This document shows positions 2,004-63,282 of a stretch of DNA of 64,000 nucleotides, one piece after another. The notes below the pieces were generated by a model. The model did not search any database and was not told the origin of the DNA. It saw only the letters and a list, made by a program, of their open reading frames with translations. Each line of letters starts with the position of its first letter. Positions within the stretch are counted from its first letter, which is position 1. This DNA comes from a virus (lineage: Duplodnaviria > Heunggongvirae > Uroviricota > Caudoviricetes). Both the position numbers and the translations under genes were made by a program. The stretch lies in the IMG/VR virus record IMGVR_UViG_3300038393_002131; one strand, written 5' to 3'.

Positions 2004-2104
2004 GGGGTGTCTCCTCGGGGTGTCGTGGCCCGCGACGCTCGGCGGGCCGTGGCTTCATGGTGGGCCCGGGCCCTCGGGCGTGTCGAGGGTCCGGGCGTTC
2101 CGGG

Positions 2105-2979: not shown

Positions 2980-3966
2980 TCAGGCGTTGAGGTAGTCGCG
3001 GGCGGCGGCGTCGGGGTCGTCGGCGTTGTCGATGGTGACGTGGTCGGGGTCGTCGTCGGGGTCGTCGTCGCCCATGGCGTGACCGGCGAGGAAGGTCGCG
3101 GCCTCGTCGGGCTTCCCGAGGTCGATGAGCGCGTGGGCGATGTTCTCGGCCTCCGAGCAGGTGAAGTGCCCGCCGACGTGCTGGGCCGTCATCGCGTCGC
3201 CGAGCACGGCAGCGAGCAGACCGGCGGCGGCCTCGGCCGGGGTCGGGGCGGGCTTGCCGTCGCGGAGCGTGCCGTCGAACCCGGCAGCCTCGGCGGTGTC
3301 GAAGTCGACGAGGTCCTCCTCGGCGAAGATGTCACCCGGGTAGACCTGCGTGACCTCGACGCCGGAGAGGCGAGGACCGAAGTAGTGCGGCGACAGCGCA
3401 CCGTCAACAGCGGTCAGAGCGTCGGCCGTGACGCGCTCCGGGTCCTCGTCGCCGTCCTGCGACCCGTCGGGGAGGGTGAGCTCGACGAGGAGGTAGCGCA
3501 CGACATTGCTCGCCTGGTCGTCGTCGGCCCGCTTGAACGGCTGCACGGGGTCGTCGTGGTCCAACACCACGGGATAGCCGAGGTTCGTGAGGCGGGCCTC
3601 GCCGTCGAAGTGCTCGGCGTCACCGCAGACGATTCGGCCCCCGGGGCGGTCGAGGCACGGGCCCTCGTGGTCAACGTGGATGCCACAGGCGTCGGCGCAC
3701 ACGGCGTGCTCCGGGTGCTCCTCGTCGTCGGCGTGCTCGCCGTTCGGGTAGCGGGTCGGTCGGGCGTCGAACGCGGCCTCGTACGCGTCATCGTCAGCCG
3801 CGCGCTCGGGGACGGTCAGTGGCGGCGTCCACCCATCCTCGGCGACCTTGACCTTGAGGCCGTCGTCCCACGCGACGCGGACGGGCGCGCCGTGGGCGTC
3901 GGCCCGGGTCAGCAGCTCGGCGAGGGTGAGGACGTTGGACGCGGACATGGTGTGGATGGTGCTCAT
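2980..3966 (-). CDS. acidic hypothetical protein (328 aa)
   Basis: RBS GAGGAG 7 nt before the ATG; promoter-leader cassette at 3967-4058. Confidence 0.6.
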   Translation of the reverse strand: MSTIHTMSASNVLTLAELLTRADAHGAPVRVAWDDGLKVKVAEDGWTPPLTVPERAADDDAYEAAFDARPTRYPNGEHADDEEHPEHAVCADACGIHVDHEGPCLDRPGGRIVCGDAEHFDGEARLTNLGYPVVLDHDDPVQPFKRADDDQASNVVRYLLVELTLPDGSQDGDEDPERVTADALTAVDGALSPHYFGPRLSGVEVTQVYPGDIFAEEDLVDFDTAEAAGFDGTLRDGKPAPTPAEAAAGLLAAVLGDAMTAQHVGGHFTCSEAENIAHALIDLGKPDEAATFLAGHAMGDDDPDDDPDHVTIDNADDPDAAARDYLNA

Positions 3967-17947: not shown

Positions 17948-18423
17948 GCGTTCCTCGCGTCGTTGTCGGGTGGGGGCGGGCAGGGGGTGCGTGTGCCGTC
18001 GTTGGCGAACAGGGCCCAGCCGTGCGCGGTGCGCACCGGGACGCGCTCGGCGTCGACGAACTGGCCGTTGCGCGGGATCGCGTAGCCGTCGCGCTCGAAC
18101 GTCTCCCGGTCGTGGTCCTTGTCGCGGTGGCAGCCGTCGCCGGCGTTGCCGGACCCGCACAGGGTGAGCAGCCAGCCAGGGCCGTTGATCGTGGCGGCGA
18201 GTTCGCCGTGGGTGCCGCCCGCTCCGCGGCCGCGGCGGTGGTCGAGGTCCCGGGCGGGTTTGCCGCAGCGGACGCAGCGGCCGCCGTCGCGCGCGTGCAC
18301 GAGTGCGCGCGTGTCTGTGGTGGGGCCGGTGTCGCGGTGCGCGCGTGGTGCGCGCGTGGTGCGCGCGTGCGGTGCGCGCGCAGGCGCGGGGCTGGTGCGC
18401 GCGGCCGGGGCCGCGGCCTTCAT
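17935..18423 (-). CDS. HNH endonuclease-like protein (~162 aa)
   Basis: Start at M93 (MKAAAP); CVRCGKPARDLDHRRGRG...N...CHRDKDH pattern; the N-terminal region is encoded by GTGCGCGCG tandem repeats. Confidence 0.5.
   Translation of the reverse strand: MKAAAPAARTSPAPARAPHARTTRAPRAHRDTGPTTDTRALVHARDGGRCVRCGKPARDLDHRRGRGAGGTHGELAATINGPGWLLTLCGSGNAGDGCHRDKDHDRETFERDGYAIPRNGQFVDAERVPVRTAHGWALFANDGTRTPCPPPPDNDARNAWNN
18290..18420. repeat. tandem GTG(G/C)TGCGCGCG repeats inside the HNH gene 5' region
   Basis: gtggtgcgcgcgtggtgcgcgcgtgcggtgcgcgcgcagg..., encoding an HARTTRAPRAH-like reiterated peptide. Confidence 0.5.
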
Positions 18424-26119: not shown

Positions 26120-26815
26120 ATGATCCTCGCCCAACGGCGCAAGGCCGGCATGCCCGAAGATGAGGCCCGCCGGGCCGACATCGAAGCCCTAGCACAACGA
26201 GCTGCAGCAGGCTCGGAGGACGCCCTGAGCGACCTGTTCGAGACGCTGCACGACGCGACGTACCGGTTCATCTACCGGCAGGTTCGCAACCCACATCTGG
26301 CCGAGGACCTCGACGGCAAGACGTGGATGAAAATCGTCCACAAGATCAGCACCTACACCACGTCGCCATCCGGGTTCGAGTCGTGGGTCTACACCATCGC
26401 CCGCAACACTGTGCGCGACGAGTTCCGCTCCATGCCCCGCTCCCGTGAGATCCCGACGGCCGACATGCTCTCGGTGGGCATGCCGACCAGCCTCGTCTCG
26501 CAGGACGCCACGCCGGAGGAGACCGCCCTGGACGCCGAGCGCGTCGGCGAGATGCGGGTGGCTATCGCGAAGGCGCTCGAGTCGCTCCCGCCGAACCAGC
26601 GGCGCGCGCTCGTGCTGCGGTTTTTCGACGGGCTCGACGTAGTGCAGGTGGCGTCCGTGATGCAAACGACGCCGTCGAACGTTCGTAATTTACAGAGCCG
26701 TGGTGCACGTCGGCTCGCGTCCCAACTACCCGACCTCCGACTGCTGTCCATGAGGACTGTCGGTGGGGAAAAGGTGATCGCTAATGCCCAAGGAGAACGC
26801 CATGCGACTCGATGA
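26120..26815 (+). CDS. ECF-type sigma-70 family RNA polymerase sigma factor
   Basis: Region-2-like YRFIYRQVRNPHLAEDLDGKTWMKI and region-4 HTH RRALVLRFFDGLDVVQVASVMQTTPSNVRNLQSRGARRL. Confidence 0.85.
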   Translation: MILAQRRKAGMPEDEARRADIEALAQRAAAGSEDALSDLFETLHDATYRFIYRQVRNPHLAEDLDGKTWMKIVHKISTYTTSPSGFESWVYTIARNTVRDEFRSMPRSREIPTADMLSVGMPTSLVSQDATPEETALDAERVGEMRVAIAKALESLPPNQRRALVLRFFDGLDVVQVASVMQTTPSNVRNLQSRGARRLASQLPDLRLLSMRTVGGEKVIANAQGERHATR

Positions 26816-27182
26816 TGAGACGGTTGCCGGCATCCTCGACGGGTCCATCTCCCCTGGCCGGTCCGGGCGGGGTCTGCGTGAGGTCGCCGAGGCCCTGACG
26901 CCTCGCATCGCTCCGCGGGAGGCCCACCGCGCCCAGCTCAAGCACGCCATGCTGCGCGAGTTCCGCCGCCAGAACGCGGCCGCCCTCGTCGACACCCTTG
27001 ACGTCGACGCGTCGGTCGAGACGCGCCCGCTGACGGGGCACGCCCCGGTCGCGTTCGTGTCCGAGGGTGTCCGCATCGACGTCGCTGACCTTGACCCGGT
27101 CGACGCCCGCGAGTCCCTCGACGACCTCGCACTGGTGATCTCGCTCGCTGGCGAGGCCGCGACCCACAAGCGCACCAGGTGA
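26802..27182 (+). CDS. hypothetical protein co-transcribed with the sigma factor (possible anti-sigma or adaptor, ~126 aa)
   Basis: ATG at 26802 with AAGGAG RBS 6 nt upstream; overlaps the sigma gene 3' end in another frame; high-GC3 coding. Confidence 0.45.
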   Translation: MRLDDETVAGILDGSISPGRSGRGLREVAEALTPRIAPREAHRAQLKHAMLREFRRQNAAALVDTLDVDASVETRPLTGHAPVAFVSEGVRIDVADLDPVDARESLDDLALVISLAGEAATHKRTR

Positions 27183-28327
27183 CCGTCCTCGGCCGCAAGT
27201 CGGCCCTCGATGACCTGACCGTCATCGTCAGCCCGGCGGTGAAGCGTGACGCGTACGTCGTGTCCCCGCAGGTCGGCGGCAAGACGCTGGTGCTGCGCAA
27301 GGACCAGACGTTCGAGAACGCCGTCGAGCGGCTGAGTGAGCTGTTCCCGAAGGAGCACGCGGACGACGTGCGCCGGTTCGTGCGCAAGCACATGCCGGAC
27401 GCTCCGACGTTCGACTCGATCCTTGAAGGGACCGCGCCTGCGCCCTCGTGGATGCAGAAGATGGGCGATGACGGCGAGGGCCGGCCCATGACGCGACGGG
27501 CGAAACTGACGACGGCCGCGCTGGTCACGGTGATCGCCGCGGCGTCGCTGGGTGGTGTGGCCGCGGTGCGGTCCATGACGGAGTCGATGTTCGACGACGC
27601 GGCGTTCACGTCCCTGACGAGGGCGGCGCACCTCGAGTGCCGCATCCTCGACTCTGACACCGCCGAGTGCCGCAACCCCGTCAAGGGCACGGTGTGGCGC
27701 GTCCTGGCCGACGAGGGCAACGATGACCTTCCGCCGTCGTACCGGTTCCTGTCCGGGCAGCAGATGGCGGTGATCTACATGTTCCCGTCGGCCGAGGCGC
27801 GGCTGAACTACCCGAACCGGGCCGCGTACGAGCGTGTGTGGGACTACATGACGGCGCGGGACAAGATCATGATCGGCGCGACGGACGCCCCCGTCCTGGC
27901 GGCGCTGGCTGGCGCGGTCGACGAGTCGTTCCTCGACGGTGTCCCGCAGACGCCGGCGACCACGTCGAGGGGGAAGCCGCCGACGATCACCAACCTGCTG
28001 CCAACCCCCACCAAGAGCATCCCCACCGAGAAGCCGTGGCCGACACCGACGGGCGGCTCGCCCACGATGCTGGGCCCGGCCTACGGCGGGTCCTCACCGT
28101 CGCCTGAGCCGTCGTCACCGGACACGGGCACCCCGCAGCCGCCCGGGGCCGTTGACGAGCCAGTGGGCAGCACGGACCCGGATCAGCCGGGCGCGGACCC
28201 GGCGACCCCGGCCCAGCCTGCGACACCTGCCAACCCGCAGCCGTCGGTCAGCGACACGCAGAAGCCGGGGATCGGCGTCCAGCTGCCCGGTGTGTCGATC
28301 ACGCTGCCGCTGTCGATCGGGCTCTGA
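27179..28327 (+). CDS. single-pass membrane protein with Pro/Thr-rich extracytoplasmic C-terminus (382 aa; candidate transmembrane anti-sigma factor)
   Basis: ATGA overlap with the upstream gene; TM helix LTTAALVTVIAAASLGGVAAV at ~118-140; Pro-rich tail. Confidence 0.6.
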   Translation: MTVLGRKSALDDLTVIVSPAVKRDAYVVSPQVGGKTLVLRKDQTFENAVERLSELFPKEHADDVRRFVRKHMPDAPTFDSILEGTAPAPSWMQKMGDDGEGRPMTRRAKLTTAALVTVIAAASLGGVAAVRSMTESMFDDAAFTSLTRAAHLECRILDSDTAECRNPVKGTVWRVLADEGNDDLPPSYRFLSGQQMAVIYMFPSAEARLNYPNRAAYERVWDYMTARDKIMIGATDAPVLAALAGAVDESFLDGVPQTPATTSRGKPPTITNLLPTPTKSIPTEKPWPTPTGGSPTMLGPAYGGSSPSPEPSSPDTGTPQPPGAVDEPVGSTDPDQPGADPATPAQPATPANPQPSVSDTQKPGIGVQLPGVSITLPLSIGL

Positions 28328-29454: not shown

Positions 29455-30096
29455 TTACTCGACGACCTCGGCGATGACCTCACCGATGTCGACGGTGTCT
29501 CGGTCTGCGTCAGAACCGATCTGAGCCGGCGTCGCCGCCGCGGCCAGGGCCTCGGCGAGGTTGCCGGTGATCTTGTCGGCCAGCTCGGGGACGTTGACGG
29601 TGACGTCGACCTGCCCGTTGACGTTCTGGTCGACCGTGACCTGCTTGCCGAAGTGGCTGCGCTCCTGCCGTTCGAGCCACCACGCGGCCGCGCGCCAGTC
29701 CGGGGGTGTGCGCTTCTCGGACTTCTCCTCGACGACGTTGCCCTCGGTGTCGCGGTACTTGCGGGTCGTGACCTCGGTGACCTGCCCGCCGACCGCGGAC
29801 TTGCGGATGAGCGCGGCCGAGGTGACGGTGGCGTGCGCGCGGGCCTTGAGGATCTTCTCGTACAGCTCGAGGTACTTCGTCTCGACGGGGTCGGGCTCCT
29901 CCCCCGCCGCTCGGGCGTTCTGCTCGTTGTGGCCGCGGCGCATCCAGTCCTCGAAGGTGCGCTTGGAGATCCCGACGTAGTCGGCGGCCAGGCCCATGGG
30001 AGTGCCGATCTTGGTGGCCTCGATCAGCTTCTCCTCGACGTCGCGGTCGAGGAGGGTGGGGCGGCCGGGTTCCCGGCGCGAACGGCGGCGAGACAT
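29455..30096 (-). CDS. HTH DNA-binding protein (possible terminase small-subunit-like)
   Basis: Basic N-terminus MSRRRSRREPGRP then HTH (LAADYVGISKRTFEDWMRRG); acidic C-terminus; function uncertain. Confidence 0.4.
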   Translation of the reverse strand: MSRRRSRREPGRPTLLDRDVEEKLIEATKIGTPMGLAADYVGISKRTFEDWMRRGHNEQNARAAGEEPDPVETKYLELYEKILKARAHATVTSAALIRKSAVGGQVTEVTTRKYRDTEGNVVEEKSEKRTPPDWRAAAWWLERQERSHFGKQVTVDQNVNGQVDVTVNVPELADKITGNLAEALAAAATPAQIGSDADRDTVDIGEVIAEVVE

Positions 30097-30099
30097 GGG

Positions 30100-30741
30100 T
30101 CAGTCGTCCTTTCCGGGGATGAACTCGTGGTAGCAGTTGGGGCACATGACGATCCGGTCCTTGGCCGGGGTCGGGGTGTCGTCCCCGAGGAGGTCGTCCT
30201 CGTCGTCGTCGACACGGGCTGGCTCGGTGTCGTCGTCGAGGCCGTCGCGGTCCGGGTCGTAGACGCGGAACAGGTCGTCGAGCTCGTCGGCGCCGAAGCC
30301 GATGCCGTCGAACAGGGCCGCGTCGGCGGCGTGCACGTCGTGCAGCATCTCGGCCAGGAGGCGGTCATCCCAGCCGCCGGCGACGACCAGCTGGTTGTGC
30401 AGGATGATGAACGCCTCGGCGTGGGCGTCGCTCTTGGACGACCATCCGCGCTGGATGGGGACGAGCCACTCGCCGTCCTCGTCGATCATGATGCCGTCGG
30501 GGATCTGCTCGCCGCGGGCCTTCATGTCGACGAGGGCCTTCGTGCGGCCGTGGCCGGCGACGAGCCGCTGCGTGCGCTCGTCGAGGATGGCCGCGTCGGC
30601 GAAGCCGTGCTCCTCGATCGAGGCGTTGATGTCCGGATCGGAGTGCTTCTTCGGGTTCCGGAAGGCTGGGGGCACGTCGCAGAGCCGCACGTAGTCGATG
30701 CGGCGCGGTGCCAGGGGAATGCGAGAGGGCTCGGTCACCAC
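30100..30741 (-). CDS. ParB-like nuclease-domain protein
   Basis: DYVRL...NPKKHSD...IEEHGF...LVAGHGRTKAL matches the ParB N-terminal fold; C-terminal CPNC zinc ribbon; start uncertain (GTG ~30741). Confidence 0.6.
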   Translation of the reverse strand: MVTEPSRIPLAPRRIDYVRLCDVPPAFRNPKKHSDPDINASIEEHGFADAAILDERTQRLVAGHGRTKALVDMKARGEQIPDGIMIDEDGEWLVPIQRGWSSKSDAHAEAFIILHNQLVVAGGWDDRLLAEMLHDVHAADAALFDGIGFGADELDDLFRVYDPDRDGLDDDTEPARVDDDEDDLLGDDTPTPAKDRIVMCPNCYHEFIPGKDD

Positions 30742-30936
30742 AGAAACGTGGACGACCGAGCCCTCTTGTGTCGCGTGCTCGTCAGCGGACCCGCAGCGCC
30801 TCACGGGCCGGGCCGGGGCGAGCCGTCTCGTTGCGGCGGAAGATCCACCGCTCCAAGCGGATCCACCACGGCGTCGGCAGCTCGCGCGCCGGACGTGTCG
30901 TGCCGTCGGGCAGTCGCTCGAAGTTCTGCGGCCCGG

Positions 30937-35792: not shown

Positions 35793-36752
35793 TCAGAAGT
35801 CGATCTGGTCGGCGAGGACGGTCCGCAGCGGCACCGGGACGGCCGACTCGGTGATCCGTCCGACGATGCGCGCGTCGAACATCGTGAGCAGCTGCTCCTT
35901 GTTGAGGTTCGTCGTGATGATGGTCGCCTTGCCGGCCTCGAGACGGGAGCCGACGAGGGCGAGGGTGTGGGTGTTGACGAACGACGTGACGGCCTTGGTG
36001 GGGTCGAGCGCGGCCCCGAAGTCGTCGACGATGAGGAGCTTGGCGTCGTTGAGGCGGCGCAGGTAGGCGTCCTGCTCGGCCTTCCGCTCCGGCTTGTTGG
36101 TGTAGTCCATCCGGTCGAGGAACTGCCGGTGGGTGACGAACATGGTGCGGATCGGCCGGTCGCGGCGGACCGCGTAGTGGCCCGCGGCGATGGCCGAGGA
36201 CGTCTTGCCGGTCCGGGTCGGGCCGACGAGCACGACGTTGAGCTTCACCGGGAACGGCTCGTCGAGCGCGTCGATGAACTGGCCGAGGACGCGCTTGGCG
36301 AACGGGTCCTGCACGTCGGCCAGCTGCCACGCGGCGAGGGCTGCCTTGTTCGCGGCCGTGACCGACTCGCGCCAGGCGCGCATGATGCCCTCGTTCTGAG
36401 CCTCGCGCGGGTCCTGCCACGACGCGGAGTGGTCGTCGCCGGGGAGTTTCTCCTTGGGCGTGAGGATGGCCGCGTTCTCCATGAGGTGCTTGGCCTTGGC
36501 GAGGAGGCTCGCGGCGCGGGCGTCGGCGCGGGCCTTCTCGTCGGCGATGCGCTCGGCCTCGATGCGCTCGGCCTCGGCGAGGGCCCGCTCGTACTGCTCG
36601 CGGGTCTGCGTGGTCGTGGGCAGGGCCGGGACCATCTGGCCCTCGGAGCCCTCGACGAGCGAGGTGGTGTCGGGGTGGGTCGTGTCCATCACGGGCGTGT
36701 CTGCCTTCCGGTCGCTTACGGAGGGGGTAATCGGGTCGGGCTGGGTGGTCAT
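35793..36752 (-). CDS. DnaC/IstB-like AAA+ helicase loader
   Basis: Start at MTTQPDP overlapping the upstream stop (ATGA); Walker A VGPTRTGKTS, Walker B LLIVDDFG; the Arg-rich 5' extension of the track ORF is rejected. Confidence 0.75.
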   Translation of the reverse strand: MTTQPDPITPSVSDRKADTPVMDTTHPDTTSLVEGSEGQMVPALPTTTQTREQYERALAEAERIEAERIADEKARADARAASLLAKAKHLMENAAILTPKEKLPGDDHSASWQDPREAQNEGIMRAWRESVTAANKAALAAWQLADVQDPFAKRVLGQFIDALDEPFPVKLNVVLVGPTRTGKTSSAIAAGHYAVRRDRPIRTMFVTHRQFLDRMDYTNKPERKAEQDAYLRRLNDAKLLIVDDFGAALDPTKAVTSFVNTHTLALVGSRLEAGKATIITTNLNKEQLLTMFDARIVGRITESAVPVPLRTVLADQIDF

Positions 36753-37855
36753 GAGGTGCGGCGCTGCTGCGGCTGGTCGAACCATGCTGCGGCGCGGGCC
36801 GCGGCCTCCTCCTCGGACTCTGAGGCTGCGGGGAGGGACGAGCCGTCCTTCCAGACCTCGTCGCTGTACGAACTGTGCCGGGGGCCGAAGCGGCTGTCCA
36901 CGGTCGCGAGGTTGGTGCCGCCCATCTCCTCGCGGAGCAGTCGGCGGAACTGCGGCATGGGTGGCTGCTCGGAGCCGCTCTTGCACAGGGCGAGCTTGAT
37001 CTGGTCCTCGGTTGCGCCGTCCGTCAGGGCGACGTCGACGTAGGACTTGCGCAGGGCCTCGACGATGCGGGCCTTGCCGACGATGGGTGCGCCGGTCTTC
37101 TTCTCGAACCAGTCGAGGTAGCCCCGGACGATCCGGTAGCCCTGCTCGCGCTGGGTCTCGACCTTCGCCTCGACGACGACGCCTTCGAGCGCGAGAGTGC
37201 CGTCCGCCTGTCCCTCGTCATTGCTGATGAGGGACGAGTCCCGGCCGCCCGACGCGTCAGCGGCGGGGGTAGTTGGTTCTTTGTTGGGTTCTATGGACGG
37301 TTTGGGTGACATGGGTGTCACCCCTAGTGCGTCACCGGTGTCACCCCTGGGCGTCACAGGTGTCACCCCTGAGGCCTCATCCGGCAGGGGTGACAGTTTG
37401 GCACCCCTGTTATCCACAGGGTCACCCGTACTGTCAAGCGGTGCCTCGGTCAGGGGTGTCAGATTGGCACCCCTGTTCGCTGCTGCCTTGGTCCCGCCAG
37501 CCTGTCCGTGACCGGCGAACTGGTCGCGGCGTCCCGGCTCCCGCTCGTCCTTCCACGCCTCCCGGTCCTCGTCCGTCAGGGCGATCTCGTAGGCGATCGG
37601 GCGGTACCGCTCGGGGATGCGCGGGTCGATGACCGACTGGTCACCCTCACGGATCCAGCCATCCTCGAGGAGGACCGCGATGTGCCGCTGCACGGTGCGC
37701 ACCGAGCAGTTGGCGTACTCGGCCAGGAGTTTGGCCCCGGCGTACGCGCAGGTGCCGTCCTTGTGGGCGTGGTTCGCCAGCCCGAGGAGCACCAGCTTGC
37801 GGGTGGAGTCGCCGACGTTCATCGAGAACACGGCCGACATGGCTTCGATGCTCAC
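36749..37855 (-). CDS. replication initiator-like protein with N-terminal winged-HTH; iteron cluster inside its coding sequence
   Basis: GTG at 37855 overlaps the upstream TGA; HTH KLLAEYANCSVRTVQRHIAVLLEDGWIRE; the central Pro/Val/Thr/Gly linker is encoded by GGTGTCACCCCT repeats. Confidence 0.6.
   Translation of the reverse strand: MSIEAMSAVFSMNVGDSTRKLVLLGLANHAHKDGTCAYAGAKLLAEYANCSVRTVQRHIAVLLEDGWIREGDQSVIDPRIPERYRPIAYEIALTDEDREAWKDEREPGRRDQFAGHGQAGGTKAAANRGANLTPLTEAPLDSTGDPVDNRGAKLSPLPDEASGVTPVTPRGDTGDALGVTPMSPKPSIEPNKEPTTPAADASGGRDSSLISNDEGQADGTLALEGVVVEAKVETQREQGYRIVRGYLDWFEKKTGAPIVGKARIVEALRKSYVDVALTDGATEDQIKLALCKSGSEQPPMPQFRRLLREEMGGTNLATVDSRFGPRHSSYSDEVWKDGSSLPAASESEEEAAARAAAWFDQPQQRRTS
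37305..37480. repeat. iteron-like cluster: direct and inverted copies of GGTGTCACCCCT (putative replication origin)
   Basis: Three direct copies of ~23-bp unit GCGTCAC(C/A)GGTGTCACCCCT, inverted AGGGGTGACA at ~37386, two copies of TTGGCACCCCTGTT, variants AGGGTCACCCG and CAGGGGTGTCAG. Confidence 0.6.
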
Positions 37856-38205
37856 GCGATCACCGCCAGCGCGTAGCGGTTGCGGGCCGTGGGCTGGCCG
37901 TTGCGGTACTCGAGGCGCTTCTGGCGGGTGATGACGCCAGCGCGGACCAGCTCGCCGAGGAACTGGCGGGCGCGGCCCTGGGTCATACCGGACGTTTCGG
38001 CGACCTCAATGAGGCCGAGCCAGCGGGCGCCATCCCGGGACAGGACGAGCATCGCGGCGGCGATCTTGAACGCCCCGTCGGTCAGCGGCCGCGCCACGAG
38101 AGCGGCGAGGGTGGCCGCTGCATCAACGGTCGGGGGGTTCTGGATGGGGAGGTGCGTGTCGGCTGCGAGTGCGTGTGCCGACGGGACCCTTGCGGGTACA
38201 GTCAT
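37852..38205 (-). CDS. winged-helix DNA-binding protein (~117 aa)
   Basis: Start at M96 (MTVPARV) with RBS GGTGAGGA; C-terminal wHTH-like GMTQGRARQFLGELVRAGVITRQ. Confidence 0.5.
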   Translation of the reverse strand: MTVPARVPSAHALAADTHLPIQNPPTVDAAATLAALVARPLTDGAFKIAAAMLVLSRDGARWLGLIEVAETSGMTQGRARQFLGELVRAGVITRQKRLEYRNGQPTARNRYALAVIA

Positions 38206-38842: not shown

Positions 38843-39499
38843 TCATGCCGCGGACTCCTCGCCCTGGTGCGCGACGACCGTGCCCTCGATAGTGGCGTGG
38901 GCCTCGAGCTGCCGGTCGGCGGCCGCGACGAGCGCGTCGATGTCGAAGTCGGCCGCGAGCTGGTCGAGGACCTCGTCGCGGGCGTCGCGCTTCTCCTGCG
39001 CGCCGGCGCCGGTGAACGGCGTGAACCGGGTGGTGGTCGCCGGGCCGGCCGCCTTGTAGGCCAGGCCGGGGATCGTCTCGCCGGTGTTCTTGTTGTAGAC
39101 CGTGCCGTCCTCGGCGACCGCGACGTTCTTCGGGTCGGTCATCGTCTTGAGGACGTTGCCGCGGACGGTGACCTTGACCTCGAGCGCGCCGGGGTTCGTC
39201 TCCTCGAGGTGCTCGATGAGGTCGCCCTCGTCGGCCACGTAGAACGAGCCCTTGGGCTCGACGACGGTGACGGTGCCGATGTGCACGCCGTCGTGCAGGA
39301 CCTCGATGGACTTCTGCCGGCCCTCGACGCCGGGGTTGTTGAAGCGGTCGAGCAGCTGCTCGTCGGCGGCGGCGCGCATCTTCGTCGTGAGGCCCTTGGC
39401 CTTGGACACGATGCGGTCGGCGACCATGTGCGCGAGGTACTGCTGCGCGGCCGTGGCGAAGCCGATGCCGCCGGTGCTGGGGTCGGTGACCTGAGTCAT
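38843..39499 (-). CDS. hypothetical protein (~219 aa)
   Basis: Start at M31 (MTQVTDPS); first minus-strand gene after the divergent switch region. Confidence 0.5.
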   Translation of the reverse strand: MTQVTDPSTGGIGFATAAQQYLAHMVADRIVSKAKGLTTKMRAAADEQLLDRFNNPGVEGRQKSIEVLHDGVHIGTVTVVEPKGSFYVADEGDLIEHLEETNPGALEVKVTVRGNVLKTMTDPKNVAVAEDGTVYNKNTGETIPGLAYKAAGPATTTRFTPFTGAGAQEKRDARDEVLDQLAADFDIDALVAAADRQLEAHATIEGTVVAHQGEESAA

Positions 39500-39764
39500 G
39501 GGGGTTCTCTCCCGTGTGTCGGCCGGGGACGCAATCCCGGCGTGTGGCTGCAGTTTCGCACACCCGCTCATCTCGGGCAAGGGTTGCAACTAGACACGCG
39601 GCGCGCCGACTGCACAAAGTGCACCGGCTGCAGTGCACTTTCGGCCGACACCCCTGACACCACCCCCAACGCGCAGGCGCGCGACAGGCGCGCACGCGCG
39701 CGTACGCGCGAGGAATGCATTCTGTCAACTCCGGCCCCACCCGCCCCTGCTCTACGATTGGCGC
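39500..39764. promoter_or_regulatory. divergent switch region with operator-like palindromes and GCGCGC repeats
   Basis: TGCACAAAGTGCA palindrome; inverted repeat AAAGTGCAC-N8-GTGCACTTT (~39608-39640); then CAGGCGCGCACGCGCGCGTACGCGCGA. Confidence 0.5.
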
Positions 39765-40241
39765 ATGGCGGACCGGGTTGTATCTCCACGGGCCCGAGCG
39801 GCGTTCGTCCTCGCGGCCCTCGCCGTCGACCTCGCCGACGCGTCCCGTGACCTCGTCGCCGACATCGCGACCCCGCACCGCCCGGGCGAGCTCACCTACC
39901 GGGTGCGGCAGCAGCTGCGTGTCGCGTCCGTCGCGGCCGTCGATCTCGCCCTCATGATCGAGGCCTACGACGGCGCGTCGTGGGATGTCCTGGCCGACCG
40001 GTCGCTGGTGCCGGCCGCCGAACTCGAGGCCCGGTACGAGCCGGTCCTCACCTCGTGGCGCGCGGGCGTGTGGGCCCTGCCGCCGAACGGTGTCGTCTAC
40101 GCGCAGTTCCTCCCGGCGTTCCAGCTCGAACCGGACCTTGACACTGCGGCCGCGCTCGACAGCTGGTGCGCGCGCGCACGGGACCCGCGCGACGAGATCA
40201 GCGGCGACGGGCCGGTGGTGCGCGCGCTCACCACGTTGTAG
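39765..40241 (+). CDS. hypothetical protein (~159 aa), plus strand
   Basis: High-GC3 coding signal with Ala/Val/Leu-rich sequence; preceded by the palindrome-rich region 39590-39764 and followed by a bidirectional terminator at 40291-40318; start uncertain. Confidence 0.45.
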   Translation: MADRVVSPRARAAFVLAALAVDLADASRDLVADIATPHRPGELTYRVRQQLRVASVAAVDLALMIEAYDGASWDVLADRSLVPAAELEARYEPVLTSWRAGVWALPPNGVVYAQFLPAFQLEPDLDTAAALDSWCARARDPRDEISGDGPVVRALTTL

Positions 40242-40290
40242 CGCGCGCGGGCGTGCGCGCACCGACGGGGAATCGCGCGCGCACGACGAA

Positions 40291-40318
40291 GGGCGGGCAG
40301 TCGAGTGACTGCCCGCCC
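40291..40318. terminator. bidirectional hairpin between the plus gene 39765..40241 and the minus ATPase gene
   Basis: GGGCGGGCAGTC-gagt-GACTGCCCGCCC, perfect 12-bp stem. Confidence 0.55.
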
Positions 40319-40353
40319 TCCCCTTGTCCGCTGCGTGCGCGTGCGCGTGCGCG

Positions 40354-41949
40354 TCAGGCGTTGACCGGCTCGCCCGCGCGGTCGGCCGCGTCGACGTCGT
40401 GCGCGCCGATCAGCTCGGCCCACATGCGGAACGTGCCCTTGCCGATGCCCGCGTACGCGTCGGCCTCAGCCGTGCGTCCCTGCGCCCGCAGGCCCTCGAT
40501 GACGCCCGGGCGCATCTTGAGGGCGTGGGCCTTGAGGACGAGCGTGTCGAGGCCCGTGACGTCCTCCGCGCCCGACTCGGCGACGATGGACGCGACGAAC
40601 TGCGCAGGGGTCGCGCCGAGCACCGACGCCTGCCCCTCCAACTCGGAGAGGATGAACGTGCGCTGCAGGTCGCGCGGCTGCTTGGCGCGCGCGGTCTGCT
40701 TCGCCTGGTACTCGTTGTTCGCGCGCTGGCCCTCCGGCTCGGTGCGCGTGTCCGGCTCGGTCGCGGGCGCGCTCTGCGCGTGCACGGGCTGGTCCTGCTG
40801 TGCGCGCGCCTCGCGCGCACCCTCACCCTGCGGCGCGCGCGCGGCCTCGTCCTGCTGCGCGGGCGCACCGGCGGTCTGCTGCGCGCGCTCCCGCTCGGCG
40901 CGCGCGGCCGCGATCTGCTGGTCGACCTGCGCGCGCCACCCGGCGACGAGCTGCACGCCGTTGACCGGGGTGCCGTCGGGAGCCTGCGTGTGGATGCCTG
41001 CGAGGGTCCGCTCGCCGTACTTGGTGTAGACGTCGCGAAGTGCCGGGAGCCGGGCCTCGACGTCGTCGAGGTTGACGGCGGCCTGCACGTCACCGAGGAA
41101 CTCGTCGACGAGGATCACGTCCTCATCCGCCCCCGGGCCGTCTGCCGTGGACATGATGTTGTGCGACCGCTGGCCGACCTCGGCCGCGTCGGCGAGACCC
41201 AGCACCCGCCAGAACGCATCCATGGAGAAGTCGGGGAATGCGGTGCTCCGGTCGTAGACGCCGGTCTTGACCGGCTCCCGCCGCACCGACCGGGTGCCGG
41301 TGACGTACCACTCCCGGTACTCCGGGGCCTCGACCACGGCACCGACGTCTGACGCAAGGCCCTTCTGAGCCTTGATCTTCCAGTGACGGTCCTTGGTCGG
41401 CTTCCCGGCCGCGTCCATGACCACCTGATTCTCGAGCAGGGCTGTCACGATGACGGGGCCGTCGTGGGCGCGGAGGACGTCGACGACGTCGTACCAGTCG
41501 TTCTTGGCCTTGTTCCACAGGTCGGGGTGGACGGTGACCTCGTCGTCAGGGCTGTAGGGCTTGTTGTACTTCTCGGCGGCCTTCTTGGCGCGACGGTGTG
41601 CGGCCTCGTTGGCCTTGTCCGAGAGGAGCTCCCACCAGCGGCCGGCGCCGTCGAGGATGAGCAGGTTCGGCTTGCTCGGGTCGACGCGCGGCTGGGTGGA
41701 GGCGTCCTTGAGGGCCTCGAGCATGCCGCGGTGGGTGCCGTCGTGCAGGGCGATGTCGAAGCGGGCGCCGGGGATCAGGCCGTACTCGTCCGGGTCGTCC
41801 TCACCGCAGGACACGACGAAGCCGTGACCGACGAGCGGCGAAGCGGTCGCCTCGATCGCGGTGTAGGTCTTGCCCTTCTTCTCGCCAGCGGCGAGGAGGG
41901 TGATGGGCCAGGACGGGAGGCCGGTGGGCTTGCGGAACGTGGTTGCCAC
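40354..41949 (-). CDS. P-loop NTPase (RecA-like/AAA-type ATPase, ~531 aa)
   Basis: GTG at 41949 with RBS GGAGAA and class-I leader hairpin; Walker A AAGEKKGKT near the N-terminus, Walker-B-like LLILDGAG; acidic/Gln-rich C-terminal half. Confidence 0.55.
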   Translation of the reverse strand: MATTFRKPTGLPSWPITLLAAGEKKGKTYTAIEATASPLVGHGFVVSCGEDDPDEYGLIPGARFDIALHDGTHRGMLEALKDASTQPRVDPSKPNLLILDGAGRWWELLSDKANEAAHRRAKKAAEKYNKPYSPDDEVTVHPDLWNKAKNDWYDVVDVLRAHDGPVIVTALLENQVVMDAAGKPTKDRHWKIKAQKGLASDVGAVVEAPEYREWYVTGTRSVRREPVKTGVYDRSTAFPDFSMDAFWRVLGLADAAEVGQRSHNIMSTADGPGADEDVILVDEFLGDVQAAVNLDDVEARLPALRDVYTKYGERTLAGIHTQAPDGTPVNGVQLVAGWRAQVDQQIAAARAERERAQQTAGAPAQQDEAARAPQGEGAREARAQQDQPVHAQSAPATEPDTRTEPEGQRANNEYQAKQTARAKQPRDLQRTFILSELEGQASVLGATPAQFVASIVAESGAEDVTGLDTLVLKAHALKMRPGVIEGLRAQGRTAEADAYAGIGKGTFRMWAELIGAHDVDAADRAGEPVNA

Positions 41950-42740: not shown

Positions 42741-43251
42741 GTGGGGTTCTCCCGGTGGGGTGTCGGTGAGCGTGGACGCTGTTCCGCTGTAAGCGCATCG
42801 TAGCGACGACGCAAAGCGCGCGCTGCTAGACGCGCACACCCCTATTGCAATGCGCGCGCACTCACGCTTCGCGATATGAGAGATGGCCGCTCGGTCTACC
42901 GGAGGGTTCGTGTGCCGGATCGTAACCGTAGCGTTCGGCGTCCCCGTCGCTTAGTCGCGACACCACATGTCGTGGCGACCAGGCCCAACCCATGAAGGAC
43001 CTTTTGACTCGCGCGCTCAAATGGTGTTGATCCGCCGTACACGCGACAGTTTCCTGTCCCGTGGACACAACAGCGGCACCGCTTTTGAGCACCTGTGACG
43101 ATCGACCTCCGGCAGCCCGAGCGGCCACCTCTGCGGTCAGTGTAGCGAGCCGAACCTAAATATGCGTGGTGGGGCTAGCGCAAGGTTCGAGCAAGATGTA
43201 CCGCGCGCGTGCGCGCGAACCACTATGGGCGCGCACGCGCGCGGCGTGTCG

Positions 43252-56895: not shown

Positions 56896-57055
56896 GTGCG
56901 CGTCGCGGTCGAACTTCCGGGGCTTCTTGCGCGCGCGCAGTTGCGTGTTGGCGAGGAGGACGGCCACCGTCACCACCCCCCGCGTGCACGCGCACGGTGC
57001 ACGCGCGCGAGCTCGGGGCGGTGCGCGCGCATGCGCGCGGTGTCGAGCGCGCGCA
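56896..57055. repeat. GCGCGC-rich intergenic repeat block inside the structural module
   Basis: GCGTGCACGCGCACGGTGCACGCGCGCGAGC...GTGCGCGCGCATGCGCGCGG...GCGCGCGCATCAG. Confidence 0.5.
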
Positions 57056-57661
57056 TCAGTACCCCCGCACCCACGTCGTGCCGTAGTTCGGCCACAGCGG
57101 CCCGGGCCGCGACGGGCGCACGTACACCGCGCGGCGGCGGTACCGGTCGAGCGTCTTGAGCTTGGGCAGCGAACCGACCGCGCCATCCTCGGACGGGCGC
57201 GCGACCATCTGCAGCGACTGGCCCTCGGCCGAGATCGACGTGACGTCCGGGTGCTTGGGGAAGCCGTAGGACTCGTCCTCGCGCAGGGTGCGCATCGTGT
57301 GCGCGGTGACGTAGCGGACGATCGGCGCGGTGCCGGGCCCGTTGAGCCCGACGTAGAACGTGACGGTCCACGACTCGTCGTCGGCCTGCACGCGCGTCTT
57401 GACGGCGTAGTCGTCGTCGAACTGGTGACCGTCGGGCCACGCCCGCCACGAGTCGGGGTCGTAGCCGGGCATCGGGTAGATGCCCTCGAGGACCCGCTCC
57501 TCGGGGATGAGGGGCCGGTTGAGGAACCCTTCGACGTCGGCCTGGCAGTCGAAGATCGCGTCGCTGATCGAGTCGAGTTGCAGCTGCGAGGGGTTGACGA
57601 GTCGCATCCGCGAGGCGATCACCTGCGGAAGCACGACGAGGGTGTTCGGGTCAGCCGCCAC
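57056..57661 (-). CDS. hypothetical structural-module protein (201 aa)
   Basis: Protein-like ORF between the head and tail modules. Confidence 0.45.
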   Translation of the reverse strand: MAADPNTLVVLPQVIASRMRLVNPSQLQLDSISDAIFDCQADVEGFLNRPLIPEERVLEGIYPMPGYDPDSWRAWPDGHQFDDDYAVKTRVQADDESWTVTFYVGLNGPGTAPIVRYVTAHTMRTLREDESYGFPKHPDVTSISAEGQSLQMVARPSEDGAVGSLPKLKTLDRYRRRAVYVRPSRPGPLWPNYGTTWVRGY

Positions 57662-61983: not shown

Positions 61984-63282
61984 TCACGCCGGGACGGTCC
62001 AGCTGCCCACGACGAAGCTCTCCGGGCGAGCGACCTCGAGCGCCAGGCGCTCGGTCGCGAGGAAGGTGCACGCGCCGTCCGTGAAGTTGGTCCCGTGCTC
62101 CGTGCTCGCGACGACCTTGACGCTCTCGCGGTCGTGCAGCTGGGCGCCGGTGCCGAACGCGCCGACGAGGAACTTCGCGTCGTCCATGGCGGTCGTCTCG
62201 ACGACCCGGAGGCGCCAGACGCGCTTCTCGGCGCCGATCGCGACGGAGACGGCGACACGGAACGCACCCGTGCTGTCCTCCTCGACCTCCACGGCCTCCC
62301 ACATCGTCGGCGAGAGAACGATGCCGTTCATCTCGTACTCCGCGAGGAGACCCTTGGTGATCGCGCGGCGGATCTGGACCGAGTAGCCGTCGGCGGCGAG
62401 ACCCGTGTAGGCCTGGACGCCGGGGCTGTTGAACAGACCCGTGATCTTCTCGCCCGACCCCGTGGAGTGCAGGAGGTCGTTGTCCTCGGCGTACTTGACG
62501 CCCTCGACGAGGCGGTTGTTGATGAACGACTTGAGTCGCCCGTCGTCCGCGAGGATGTTGACGTGCGCGTCGAGCGAGTGCTTGATCTCCGCGACGGGGA
62601 ACAGCACGGGCTCGAGGCGCAGCTTCGACTTCGGCGCGCGGCCGAACACGTCGTCGTCGGCGCCGGTGGCCGGGGACACGCCGTCGGCGGCGTAACGCTG
62701 CGCGACCTGCGCGGCGTTGTTCGTCCAGCCGAGCTCACGGAGCCCCGTCAGGACGGACGCCTTCGTGGTCGACTTCGGGAACAGGTCCCGAATGTGCATC
62801 TTGCGGTAGGCGCGCTCCGCGATGCCGAGGTCCTGGTTGGTGCCGAGGGCCTGGAACTCGTGGCTGCCGGCCGCGAAGTTGTAGAGGGACTTGCCCTCGA
62901 GCTGGACGGTGATGTTCGACACGTTGTCGAACCCGGCCTTCGCGGCGCGCTGGTAGGCCTCGGCGTCGGTGAACGCGTCACCGAGCGACTTGCCCTCGAG
63001 GCGGCCGGCGCCGGCGTCGAGCGCGGCCTCGGACGGACGCTCGGGGGCGTTGAGGTAGTCGTAGCCCTCGGCGACCTTCTCGACGGCGTCGATGAAGCTC
63101 TTGGCCTCGGCGGCCTCCATGACGGCGGTCTTGTACTTCGTGTACTCCTCGCGGGAGATCTCGAAGCGGCCCTTCTCGTCGGTCTTGAAACCGGAGGCGA
63201 TGCCCTCGATGTCGGCGTTCTTCTGCTCGAGGTCGGCCTTGGCCGCGGCGAGCATGCTCTTGTCGAGCGTGGCGGTGCTCAT
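61984..63282 (-). CDS. major capsid protein (HK97-like, with an N-terminal scaffold-like helical segment)
   Basis: 432 aa; N-terminal coiled-coil-like ~100 aa then a mixed alpha/beta domain; own promoter region and strong terminator. Confidence 0.75.
   Translation of the reverse strand: MSTATLDKSMLAAAKADLEQKNADIEGIASGFKTDEKGRFEISREEYTKYKTAVMEAAEAKSFIDAVEKVAEGYDYLNAPERPSEAALDAGAGRLEGKSLGDAFTDAEAYQRAAKAGFDNVSNITVQLEGKSLYNFAAGSHEFQALGTNQDLGIAERAYRKMHIRDLFPKSTTKASVLTGLRELGWTNNAAQVAQRYAADGVSPATGADDDVFGRAPKSKLRLEPVLFPVAEIKHSLDAHVNILADDGRLKSFINNRLVEGVKYAEDNDLLHSTGSGEKITGLFNSPGVQAYTGLAADGYSVQIRRAITKGLLAEYEMNGIVLSPTMWEAVEVEEDSTGAFRVAVSVAIGAEKRVWRLRVVETTAMDDAKFLVGAFGTGAQLHDRESVKVVASTEHGTNFTDGACTFLATERLALEVARPESFVVGSWTVPA

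Follow-up and report, generated by a model that had tools for sequence, protein, structure and literature searches.

A probable divergent control region between a replication operon and a gene for a predicted HTH-type protein in a phage related to Streptomyces phage Gilgamesh

The lambda-type immunity region (cI-PRM/OR/PR-cro) and its actinophage analogues are a natural yardstick for a small gene that diverges from phage early genes. The lambda cI mRNA, which is made from PRM, is leaderless. The only cultured phage with a homologue of the gene discussed here is Streptomyces phage Gilgamesh, where gp78 (MN234216.1) is recorded as a hypothetical protein. Cluster K mycobacteriophages carry SAS/ESAS elements, in which a 13-bp repeat, GGGATAGGAGCCC, lies 3-8 bp upstream of start codons (PMC3203893). 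Ahead of it there is often an inverted repeat whose spacer varies, and these repeats are unexplained (PMC3203893). For RelI, an actinobacterial protein with a motif similar to one in our gene product, the HTH region binds a protein, and no DNA binding was demonstrated (PMC13284704).

Here we describe a 265-base gap (39500-39764, 69% GC) between a minus-strand gene and a divergent plus-strand gene. The window, by which we mean the whole stretch analysed, is 64,000 nucleotides of viral DNA from a 134-kb contig. The gene calls of a first-pass annotation stand: the minus gene starts at 39499 with an ATG and the Shine-Dalgarno sequence GGGAGAG, and the plus-strand ORF at 39765-40241 has a coding-type composition. 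Plus-strand genes are indeed as scarce here as had been claimed. Besides 26784-28327, this is the sole plus-strand unit from about 24 kb to 43 kb. The minus gene encodes 218 aa and opens a leftward operon in which genes for WhiB, a wHTH protein, the replication initiator and a DnaC-like loader follow. The initiator gene is ~1.7 kb from the gap, which sits within a replication/recombination cluster. The 218-aa protein has a weak PHROG match to Gam-like proteins (E = 5e-4), and its profile gave no meaningful match in the PDB. The genes are:

36749-37855, leftward operon: replication initiator gene.
37852-38205, leftward operon: wHTH protein gene.
38843-39499, minus strand: 218-aa gene, first of the leftward operon, starting with the ATG at 39499 (GC3 = 0.98).
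39765-40241, plus strand: gene for a 158-aa acidic protein of the Gilgamesh gp78 family, predicted to be all-helical (GC1/2/3 = 0.79/0.52/0.91).

Divergent promoters very probably occupy the gap, because predicted promoter elements at its two ends are conserved across several loci. Overall we see an ordinary divergent control region, and the lysogeny-switch reading is only partly supported. The elements within and just beyond the gap are:

39507-39513, minus strand: Shine-Dalgarno GGGAGAG of the 218-aa gene, from its sequence and its alignment with those of other cassette copies.
39514-39541, minus strand: 5'-UTR element, hairpin GCCGGG-AUUGCGUC-CCCGGC, then CGACACAC.
39552-39586, minus strand: predicted leftward promoter, aligned with window cassettes and relatives.
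39611-39641, no strand: inverted repeat AAAGTGCAC-N8-GTGCACTTT (39616-39624 and 39633-39641), with an extra TGCAC at 39611-15.
39665-39711, no strand: GC-rich conserved blocks CCCAACGCGCAGGCGCGCG and CGCGCGCGTACGCGCGA, from conservation and fold.
39713-39728, no strand: 10-bp perfect palindrome GAATGCATTC (39713-22), then the hexamer TGTCAA (39723-28).
39752-39767, plus strand: predicted rightward promoter, -10 TACGAT (39753-58), 6 nt before the ATG at 39765.
40241-40355, no strand: convergent junction, with a terminator-type hairpin at 40290-40319 and flanking CGCGCGC(A/G)C clusters.

The DNA of the region matched none of 50,697 phage records, tblastn of the 218-aa and plus-gene proteins against phages gave no match, and an Rfam search over 38-44 kb returned nothing credible. 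Ten further contigs with the plus gene are identical over 38843-40400 except for one base (40336 in L003), so they hold no polymorphism information. Eight relative loci were read. The plus gene diverges from a minus-strand gene in seven of them (L016, L011, L012, L014, L063, L065 and L018); the eighth, L064, is not syntenic. Homologues of the 218-aa gene occupy the equivalent position in L016, L011, L012 and L014, an IstB/DnaC-type replication module is present in L011, L012, L014 and L065, and a WhiB gene stands beside the minus gene in L016, L063 and L065. Between the window and L016 the gap is 69% identical, compared with 54-60% for flanking coding DNA and 49 ± 1.7% for shuffles. L016 is the one close relative, and conservation is therefore judged from this pair only. 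A related-locus search with the 218-aa protein yielded no further close relatives. Scanning viral contigs with the 18-mer CCAACGCGCAGGCGCGCG matched 20 loci, none encoding the plus-protein family, and a metagenome scan with TCGCACACCCG-N6-14-GGCAAGGGT matched 20 loci, none relevant. A profile built from P0001 and P0002 matched just those two proteins.

The predicted leftward promoter has a -35 element TTGCCC (39580..39575) within the block CAACCCTTGCCC, a 17-nt spacer ending in TGC, and a -10 element GAAACT (39557..39552) that is a poor match to TANNNT; its predicted start is near 39545. A generic sigma-70 scan detected no promoter in the gap. The promoter is collinear with six full promoter/UTR cassettes of the window, and each of the seven relatives read (L016, L011, L012, L014, L063, L065 and L018) has TTGCnn-N17/18-(TG)n-nAnnnT upstream of its minus gene. 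The 5'-UTR hairpin that follows belongs to a family of at least 22 copies in the window; all 22 fold, with covarying stems and a conserved (A)AGCGUC loop. The UTR block GCCGGGGACGC..TCCCGGC is kept in L016, and CCGG-stem hairpins lie at the equivalent place in L011, L012, L014, L018, L063 and L065. We predict that the leftward operon uses a variant copy of this promoter and 5'-UTR hairpin cassette. Some members of the UTR hairpin family carry a fused, conserved promoter, AACCCTTGNCC-N-TAGYGCACA-N-TAAMGT.

On the other side of the gap, the plus gene has no Shine-Dalgarno sequence and a predicted -10 element only 6 nt before its ATG, so its mRNA is probably leaderless. The sequence CTACGATTGG..CATGG at the plus-gene start is kept in L016, and L011, L012, L014 and L065 have TATCAT or TATGCT 6-7 nt ahead of the start codon. 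The geometry of a leaderless gene (TAnnnT 6-7 nt before the start codon, no Shine-Dalgarno) is found in the window and in these five relatives, whereas the homologues in L063 and L018 have a leader and a Shine-Dalgarno sequence instead. The hexamer TGTCAA lies at -42 to -37 from the plus-gene start, at an equal distance in L016; the palindrome GAATGCATTC is not conserved there. A second leftward promoter based on the conserved TTGACA (39728..39723) was rejected, as neither phage has a -10 element after it.

Between the two predicted promoters lies the inverted repeat, which is real. It has perfect 9-nt arms, the sole two exact copies of the AAAGTGCAC 9-mer in the window, and an interrupted extension (GCCGA at 39605-09, TCGGC at 39641-45). 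The supposed perfect palindrome TGCACAAAGTGCA (39611-39623) turned out otherwise: its reverse complement is TGCACTTTGTGCA, and it consists of 5-nt arms, TGCAC and GTGCA, around AAA. Counting perfect inverted repeats whose arms reach at least 9 nt and whose spacer does not exceed 12 nt, the window has 21, against a first-order Markov expectation of 9.9 ± 3.3 per window, or 0.04 per 265 bp. The hairpin folds modestly better than shuffles (z = -2.2). With about ten expected by chance and so modest a fold, the repeat alone is weak, non-compelling evidence.

What raises it above chance is L016. There AAAGTGC/GCACTTT are retained as an inverted pair (chance about 1.3e-3) within a gap that is highly conserved as a whole. 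Of the two arms, the right one, TGCACTTTC, stays in register as a conserved block, and the left one has shifted by 9 nt. The spacer is 21 nt rather than 12 nt, a difference that a simple dimeric regulator would not easily accommodate. The L016 version forms no stable hairpin (z = -0.8), so that a site in double-stranded DNA is the more likely form. For this reason, and for the weak stem and the U residues inside it, we discarded the reading of the repeat as an intrinsic terminator. The core AGTGCAC has nine copies in the window, six of them in the 13% that is non-coding. Relative to the predicted starts, the repeat lies at -71 to -96 leftward and -124 to -149 rightward, overlapping neither predicted core promoter, and it is single: the gap holds no array of related operators, and none that overlap the core promoters. 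On this sequence evidence the repeat is probably regulatory.

The GCGCGC blocks noted by the first-pass annotation are present at 39665-39711. In L016, CCCAACGCGCAGGCGCGCG is identical at 19/19 nt. The blocks hold 8 (CG)3 hexamers where 1.3 are expected, and could form two short hairpins (39677-93 and 39695-710; -18.9 kcal/mol, z = -1.4). Constraint on the inverted repeat and GC blocks together is supported by alignment with this one close relative. Both are absent from more distant relatives, whose two promoters are only about 50-70 bp apart. As a separate observation, GACAC, which we take to be the WhiA motif, occurs four times in the gap against an average of 0.94, a count reached in only 1.7% of windows; we treat this as a lead, not as evidence.

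The plus gene had also been described as bracketed by a bidirectional terminator. There is one strong hairpin, but it lies downstream only, so the gene is not bracketed. At 40290-40319, between the convergent plus gene and ATPase gene, a 13-bp stem with a 4-nt loop folds as DNA at -18.7 kcal/mol (z = -7.2), as a stable GC-rich 3'-end stem-loop. Neither strand has a T-run that could supply a U-tract, and a terminator scan found nothing. Hairpins without such a tail are common at actinobacterial gene ends. At the equivalent convergent site, L016, L011 and L014 have hairpins of differing sequence, each flanked by (CG)n clusters. Enrichment of (CG)3 hexamers is 10-20 times in L011, L014 and the window, and about 4 times in L016. 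Further GC-rich inverted repeats stand at other operon ends in the window (43203-43245, z = -5.9; 56981-57056).

The plus-gene product appeared to be an orphan in a k-mer-filtered protein search, a result overturned by a full HMMER scan, which gave 51 representative homologues at 30-42% identity with N-termini that align at M1. The family is represented in Streptomyces genomes and on plasmid pSSFR1 too; the three Streptomyces loci carry no other gene of the window. By sequence comparison, this is an uncharacterised, conserved and unannotated family linked to the replication/recombination module.

No HTH had been recognised by eye in the product. At the level of profiles this was wrong. Family profile searches gave conserved motifs with weak, sub-threshold matches to HTH_AsnC, HTH_23, Myb and sigma-r4, and a putative HTH/Myb-like motif lies internally at residues about 70-99. 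The best match by sequence to a solved structure is RelI (9sdc), a weak one (E = 0.0028, residues about 37-93). An alignment-based AF2 model is confident (pLDDT 90.5, seven helices), compared with pLDDT 51 for a poor single-sequence model. Fold searches turned up nothing specific. Profiles and model together predict an HTH-type motif. The protein is nevertheless acidic (pI 4.6, net charge -7), as is its family (median pI 4.9; pI below 6 in 52 of 54 members). Its putative recognition helix (AAELEARYEP) is acidic as well, its third helix reads AAELEARYEPVLTSWR, and we found neither a basic DNA-contacting surface nor a basic recognition helix. Comparison with Pfam, PHROGs, NCBIfam and PADLOC gave no match to a repressor, antirepressor or defence family, and PADLOC matched no defence system among the neighbours.

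We lean, with confidence a little beyond even, towards a reading in which the gap compactly controls transcription in both directions, the repeat and GC blocks would tune the promoters, and the phage is large, Gilgamesh-like and infects a Streptomyces-type host. Rightward, a host sigma-A-type RNA polymerase would act on TACGAT (39753-58), with its start on the A of the ATG (39765) or beside it. The resulting leaderless mRNA would encode the 158-aa acidic helical HTH/Myb-like protein and end at the hairpin at 40290-40319. Leftward, polymerase would use the variant cassette TTGCCC-N17-(TGC)GAAACT (39580-39552). A leader of about 46 nt, with the standard 5' stem-loop (39522-41), the CGACACAC box and the Shine-Dalgarno sequence, would precede the operon of 218-aa, WhiB, wHTH, initiator and DnaC-like loader genes. 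The repeat (39616-41) and GC blocks (39665-711) would occupy the ~170-bp inter-promoter stretch, upstream of both promoters. There they would most likely bind one or more phage DNA-binding proteins, tuning one or both promoters from upstream; the wHTH protein, the initiator and the plus-gene product itself are candidates for this role.

Other readings have to be weighed against this one. The repeat and self-complementary GC blocks could act as nucleic-acid structures (RNA hairpins, cruciform, Z-DNA) rather than as protein operators, and insulate both units, for example by stopping leftward read-through past the hairpin at 40290-40319 from running antisense through the plus gene. We consider this unlikely: in each of the four phages with the ATPase neighbour, the terminator hairpin does have (CG)n clusters on its flanks, comparable inverted repeats stand at the other operon ends listed above, and the window GC blocks can form two hairpins. 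However, those blocks fold no better than shuffles, the L016 repeat is unfolded, there is no U-tract, and the most conserved block (19/19 nt) is mostly outside the predicted stems. If our promoter assignments are right, moreover, this DNA is transcribed by read-through only. That the repeat is a functionless chance palindrome, in a gap conserved for its promoters and other sites, seems fairly improbable to us. Its expected frequency, its marginal fold, the 9-nt shift of the left arm in L016 and its absence from distant relatives are all as chance would have it, but chance explains less readily the in-register right arm with a matching inverted left arm in L016, a gap better conserved than coding DNA, and a core concentrated outside genes.

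Equally, GC-rich iterons and an inverted repeat beside a replication module might mark a phage replication origin. This we hold to be highly improbable: within the replication/recombination cluster the gap does stand ~1.7 kb upstream of the gene for the initiator, and it contains repeated CGCGCR units, but their spacing is irregular, no AT-rich unwinding element interrupts its 69% GC, GC skew has no shift other than that due to the strand of transcription, and distant relatives with equivalent replication genes lack these GC blocks in the gap. The reading that started this work, a repressor/anti-repressor switch layout, fits the predicted divergent promoters and gains a predicted HTH-type motif and a constrained repeat; it lacks support in that the repeat is single and off the predicted core promoters and the acidic protein matches no repressor, antirepressor or defence family. 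A true temperate switch, with the plus gene as maintenance repressor, the repeat as operator and the leftward operon as lytic or early arm, is quite improbable in our estimation. An HTH-type gene does face early and replication genes, its leaderless-type promoter is conserved in relatives, and the family members in Streptomyces genomes and on pSSFR1 could be prophages or plasmid-prophages. Yet no integrase was found among the larger ORFs tested in the 64-kb window, nor any partition gene or known repressor family among the window ORFs tested. The three Streptomyces loci lack the other window genes, and in Gilgamesh gp78 runs co-directionally with replication genes.

The preferred reading, a two-way control region, has a bolder extension. 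The acidic Myb/SANT-like gp78 family could be a new class of early regulator acting via protein contacts, in an undescribed inter-promoter repeat/(CG)n control circuit, which we think speculative and rather unlikely. The protein would be made immediately from its leaderless transcript and would not be a classical repressor; partners might include host RNA polymerase, sigma, phage WhiB or the ATPase, with the inter-promoter repeat and the (CG)n arrays bracketing the gene as cis-elements. If so, the circuit and the genome-wide promoter/5'-hairpin cassette would time replication-gene expression in large Streptomyces-type phages.

What the analysis offers is a concrete map, open to test, of the two predicted promoters, the 5' leader element and the sites that may be regulatory. 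It overturns no current understanding, and its practical use is in annotation and the choice of experiments. The phage lineage is large and almost uncultivated, with Gilgamesh as its sole isolated relative, and a repeated promoter/5'-hairpin cassette comparable to SAS/ESAS could help to explain how expression is organised in such phages.

How, then, does the locus compare with known systems? Like the lambda-type immunity region, it has a small gene, for a predicted HTH-type protein, diverging from early and replication genes, a short gap with an inverted repeat, and a plus-gene mRNA that is probably leaderless. Unlike it, the window has neither promoter-overlapping operators nor a tripartite operator, the plus protein resembles neither CI, Cro nor any further repressor family, the larger window ORFs tested include no lysogeny gene that was recognised, and the orientation is not kept in Gilgamesh. 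Gilgamesh gp78 (30-34% identity to family members) adjoins gp77, a homologous 561-aa AAA-ATPase, and TerS and ParB-like genes are common to both phages. There, however, gp78 lies upstream of the ATPase gene and runs in the direction of the replication genes, neither divergent nor convergent, so divergent orientation is not essential to the family's role; nor does the Gilgamesh intergenic sequence resemble the gap. The plus protein has a motif similar to that of the RelI (Rv2664)/ClpC2-type actinobacterial HTH, in which G-x-S/T-W-x-x-I/V-A-x-x-L-G stands between a first helix and a second one that ends in R-Y/F. Only this one motif is matched, and weakly. RelI, an antitoxin of 85 aa, is paired with a toxin gene, whereas the plus gene has no toxin partner and its product has an extra N-terminal helical hairpin and a C-terminal part (LDxWxxRHxEPW). 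The leader cassette, finally, recalls SAS/ESAS as a short conserved sequence in one orientation just upstream of the start codons of many genes (PMC3203893). It is defined by an (A)AGCGTC loop and CGACAC(AC) rather than by GGGATAGGAGCCC, which makes this an analogy and not membership; and its stems covary freely around a fixed loop, which, unlike SAS/ESAS, points to an RNA hairpin.

We read the 265-bp gap at 39500-39764 as a two-way control region, which is the best-supported interpretation of this DNA. Rightward, a leaderless promoter would drive a conserved HTH-motif protein; leftward, a standard cassette promoter would drive the replication operon. The constrained upstream module that would lie between these promoters, a repeat and GC blocks, is a probable binding site for regulatory proteins of the phage. 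Promoters and start sites are in every case inferred from conservation.

Features of the gap and its flanks
38843-39499 (-): minus gene, 218 aa, with ATG at 39499 and SD GGGAGAG upstream
39593, 39647, 39656 (+) and 39516 (-): GACAC copies
39616-24 and 39633-41: 9-nt arms of the inverted repeat AAAGTGCAC-N8-GTGCACTTT
39665-39711: GC-rich blocks after the repeat
39753-58 (+): predicted -10, TACGAT, ending 6 nt before the plus-gene ATG
39765-40241 (+): plus gene, 158-aa product
40290-40319: hairpin with 13-bp stem (z = -7.2) between the convergent plus gene and ATPase gene

The minus-gene start, the exact inverted repeat and the GC-rich blocks of the first-pass annotation were all confirmed, and the plus ORF has clear coding composition (GC1/2/3 = 0.79/0.52/0.91). 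TGCACAAAGTGCA, taken there for a perfect palindrome, is TGCAC/GTGCA flanking AAA, and in place of the bidirectional terminator said there to bracket the plus gene, a hairpin lies on one side only.

The window has a GC content of ~70%, is coded almost wholly on the minus strand and contains no tRNA genes. A nucleotide search against 50,697 phage records gave no match. Several products have counterparts in the 129-kb Streptomyces phage Gilgamesh, among them the AAA/ASCE ATPase, a ParB-like protein and TerS. The window also contains tail-type ORFs of great length, a replication module and genes for SSB and a DNA methyltransferase, and the plus-gene product is recorded on contigs up to 134 kb. We therefore assign the sequence to a large actinophage that is uncultivated and resembles Gilgamesh.

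Other features of the window
26784-28327 (+): the other plus-strand unit, with a 132-aa and a 382-aa ORF
42741-43251: 511-bp non-coding gap dividing tail/lysis-side genes from early genes
61984-63282: phage capsid gene

The stretch 29455-30804, adjoining SSB and ~30 kb from the capsid gene, encodes homologues of two Gilgamesh proteins, gp85 (terminase small subunit) and gp84 (ParB-like). The second plus-strand unit is set apart from the leftward genes by a ~650-bp gap (26135-26783), and neither of its ORFs matches anything in Pfam, PHROGs or PADLOC; should the phage possess a special module, for lysogeny or otherwise, this unit is an alternative place for it. The 511-bp gap opens with a GC-rich inverted repeat with 17-nt arms (43203-43245, z = -5.9), contains relatively AT-rich stretches and may harbour a cis site, perhaps the principal promoter region for early genes. 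Three to six tandem copies of GGTGCGCGCGT at 18300-18420 explain a large share of the GTGCGCGCG excess seen across the window. They apparently fall within a minus-strand ORF that starts near 18423, in its N-terminal low-complexity region rich in Ala, Arg and His.

The plus gene is no orphan. A word-filtered search retrieved only its own product; when 1.84 billion representatives were scanned in full with HMMER, 51 homologues of about 150 aa and 30-42% identity emerged. Their alignment shares the motifs PGERIRxARxLR, DRAVLxELxxGAxWxxIAxALG...RY...W and, C-terminally, GTAxxLDxWxxRHxEPW, and no curated family in Pfam, PHROGs, NCBIfam or PADLOC covers the product. The first-pass annotation could recognise no HTH in it by eye; profile searches and a structure model do predict one. 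Family members give sub-threshold matches to HTH_AsnC-type (11/44) and HTH_23 (10/44) domains, and also to Myb-type and sigma-70 region 4 domains. A PDB-sequence profile search finds RelI (9sdc, E = 0.0028) over the HTH-type motif; RelI is an actinomycete-specific, ClpC2-related HTH-type antitoxin whose HTH region contacts its toxin, with no DNA binding shown for it (PMC13284704). AlphaFold2 with the alignment gives a confident model (pLDDT 90.5, pTM 0.83) of seven helices, in which a long hairpin at the N-terminus is followed by an HTH-like unit of three helices (42-68, 73-80, 84-99) and then by further helical structure at the C-terminus. The protein is thus predicted to bear an HTH-type motif, and direct DNA binding is putative. 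The family is acidic throughout (median pI 4.9; 4.6 for the window protein; 52/54 members below 6), as is the putative recognition helix.

Related loci place the homologue in a recurrent setting. In L016, the closest relative (42% identity), and in L011, L012, L014, L063 and L065, it lies on the strand opposite a minus-strand cluster that encodes a 190-270-aa protein, often WhiB, joined in longer loci by a replication initiator and a DnaC-like loader. It is convergent with a 520-560-aa ATPase gene in four of these six. The L018 homologue is divergent too; L064 has no synteny with the window locus. Three weaker homologues, on the 75.8-kb Streptomyces sp. BI20 plasmid pSSFR1 (L039) and Streptomyces genome contigs L040 and L041, have no other window gene nearby.

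Leftward, the minus strand reads CAACCCTTGCCC-N-TGC-GAAACT, a hairpin GCCGGG-AUUGCGUC-CCCGGC, CGACACAC, SD and ATG. The element TTGCnn-N17/18-nAnnnT, mostly with GTGTGC in front, lies upstream of the minus gene in 7/7 relatives read. Six full, near-identical cassettes, with the promoter-like unit AACCCTTG(A/C)CC-N3-TAG(T/C)GCACA-N5-6-TAA(A/C)GT fused upstream of the UTR hairpin, recur across the window, and the gap's predicted leftward promoter aligns collinearly with them; it thus appears to be a variant of the standard phage promoter and no special switch promoter. L016 has a cassette upstream of its ATPase gene (3735-3790). The fixed spacer motif suggests a dedicated factor or recent duplication.

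Cassettes and example UTR-element gene starts
1102, 6757, 15760, 16839, 22875 (-) and 59854 (+): full cassettes
2879, 3964, 5834, 8085, 8717, 9777, 11725, 15690 (-): UTR-element starts
16773, 17443, 22805, 25835, 28964, 32505, 39497, 41961 (-): UTR-element starts
59922, 63504 (+): UTR-element starts

The UTR element (hairpin, CGACAC(AC), SD, ATG) precedes at least 22 gene starts in the window; the plus gene is the exception, without a cassette. The element's hairpins fold in 22/22 cases (-9 to -16 kcal/mol), with covarying stems (GCCGGG, GGUCGG, GAUCGG, CGCGGG, GGGCGG and others) and a fixed loop, (A)AGCGUC. The element also occurs in L016, L011, L012, L014, L018 and L063, and its stem alone in L065.

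Rightward, no SD precedes the plus gene and no -35 element is visible, and TGTCAA at -42..-37 is kept in both the window and L016, as is the block CTACGATTGG..CATGG. A -10-like hexamer lies 6-7 nt before the start codon in L011, L012 and L014 (TATCAT) and L065 (TATGCT), an arrangement that is usual for actinobacterial genes with leaderless mRNAs. In L063 and L018, by contrast, the gene has a leader with SD.

Between the predicted promoters, the inverted repeat is real, yet unremarkable taken alone, because the window holds 21 perfect repeats of this size against 9.9 +/- 3.3 expected (Markov-1; 0.04 per 265 bp) and its hairpin is only marginally stabler than shuffles (z = -2.2). Its 9-mer has no exact copies in the window beyond the two arms. 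Counted from predicted starts at ~39545 and 39765, it lies at -71..-96 (leftward) and -124..-149 (rightward), overlapping neither predicted core promoter. The gap is equally long in L016 (268 versus 265 bp), the one close relative in this comparison (searches for further ones found none), and is 69% identical, against 54-60% for the four flanking coding regions and 49 +/- 1.7% for shuffles. The right arm, TGCACTTTC, is among the conserved blocks, as are CACCCCT, a 19-mer (CCCAACGCGCAGGCGCGCG), CGCGCGCGT-CGCGCGA and TGTCAA. The inverted pair AAAGTGC/GCACTTT is retained with the left arm 9 nt further out (spacer 21 nt, versus 12 nt in the window), a partner with a chance probability of ~1.3e-3. 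The L016 version has no stable hairpin fold, which makes a site in double-stranded DNA likelier than a structural role of the folded nucleic acid. More distant relatives lack the repeat and GC blocks, and their two promoters are only ~50-70 bp apart.

The core AGTGCAC occurs nine times in the window, six of them within the 13% non-coding DNA: three in cassette spacers and three as strand-wise matches at the repeat's two sites. One factor may recognize both, a lead to which L016 lends no clear support. Two further perfect inverted repeats, CGCGTGCAC-N7-GTGCACGCG and ATGCGCGCG-N8-CGCGCGCAT, occupy a short gap within the structural operon (56977-57055), the former sharing the layout GTGCAC-N-GTGCAC with the repeat studied here. 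GACAC, the WhiA recognition motif in Streptomyces, is only mildly enriched in the gap (four copies versus 0.94 on average; 1.7% of windows reach four), and lies in or beside the leftward promoter in four of the distant relatives read (L011, L012, L014, L065). A phage WhiB gene lies just downstream of the GACAC-containing region.

The divergent layout had been likened to a repressor/anti-repressor switch. A lysogeny switch lacks its defining features here: no operators overlap either predicted promoter, the plus protein matches none of the known repressor families, the larger ORFs searched in the window gave no lysogeny genes, and the divergent orientation is not kept in Gilgamesh. The self-complementary GC-rich blocks possibly have structural roles. 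Beyond the plus gene, similar CGCGCGC(A/G)C clusters lie on either side of the terminator hairpin in 4/4 phages with the ATPase neighbour.

CGCGCGC(A/G)C clusters
40241-40355: window
1841-2006: L016
8454-8552: L011
8454-8573: L014

These units are partly tandem with a 9-nt period, and the (CG)3 hexamer is enriched about 4x there in L016, compared with 10-20x in the window, L011 and L014. That the gap instead serves as an origin of replication is unlikely, and a two-way control region remains our reading.

Among cultured phages, the family is represented by Gilgamesh gp78 only. Like the plus gene, gp78 adjoins a homologous ATPase gene (gp77); unlike it, gp78 is co-directional with the replication genes. 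In Cluster K mycobacteriophages the SAS/ESAS repeats offer an analogy to the UTR element, although its sequence differs from theirs.
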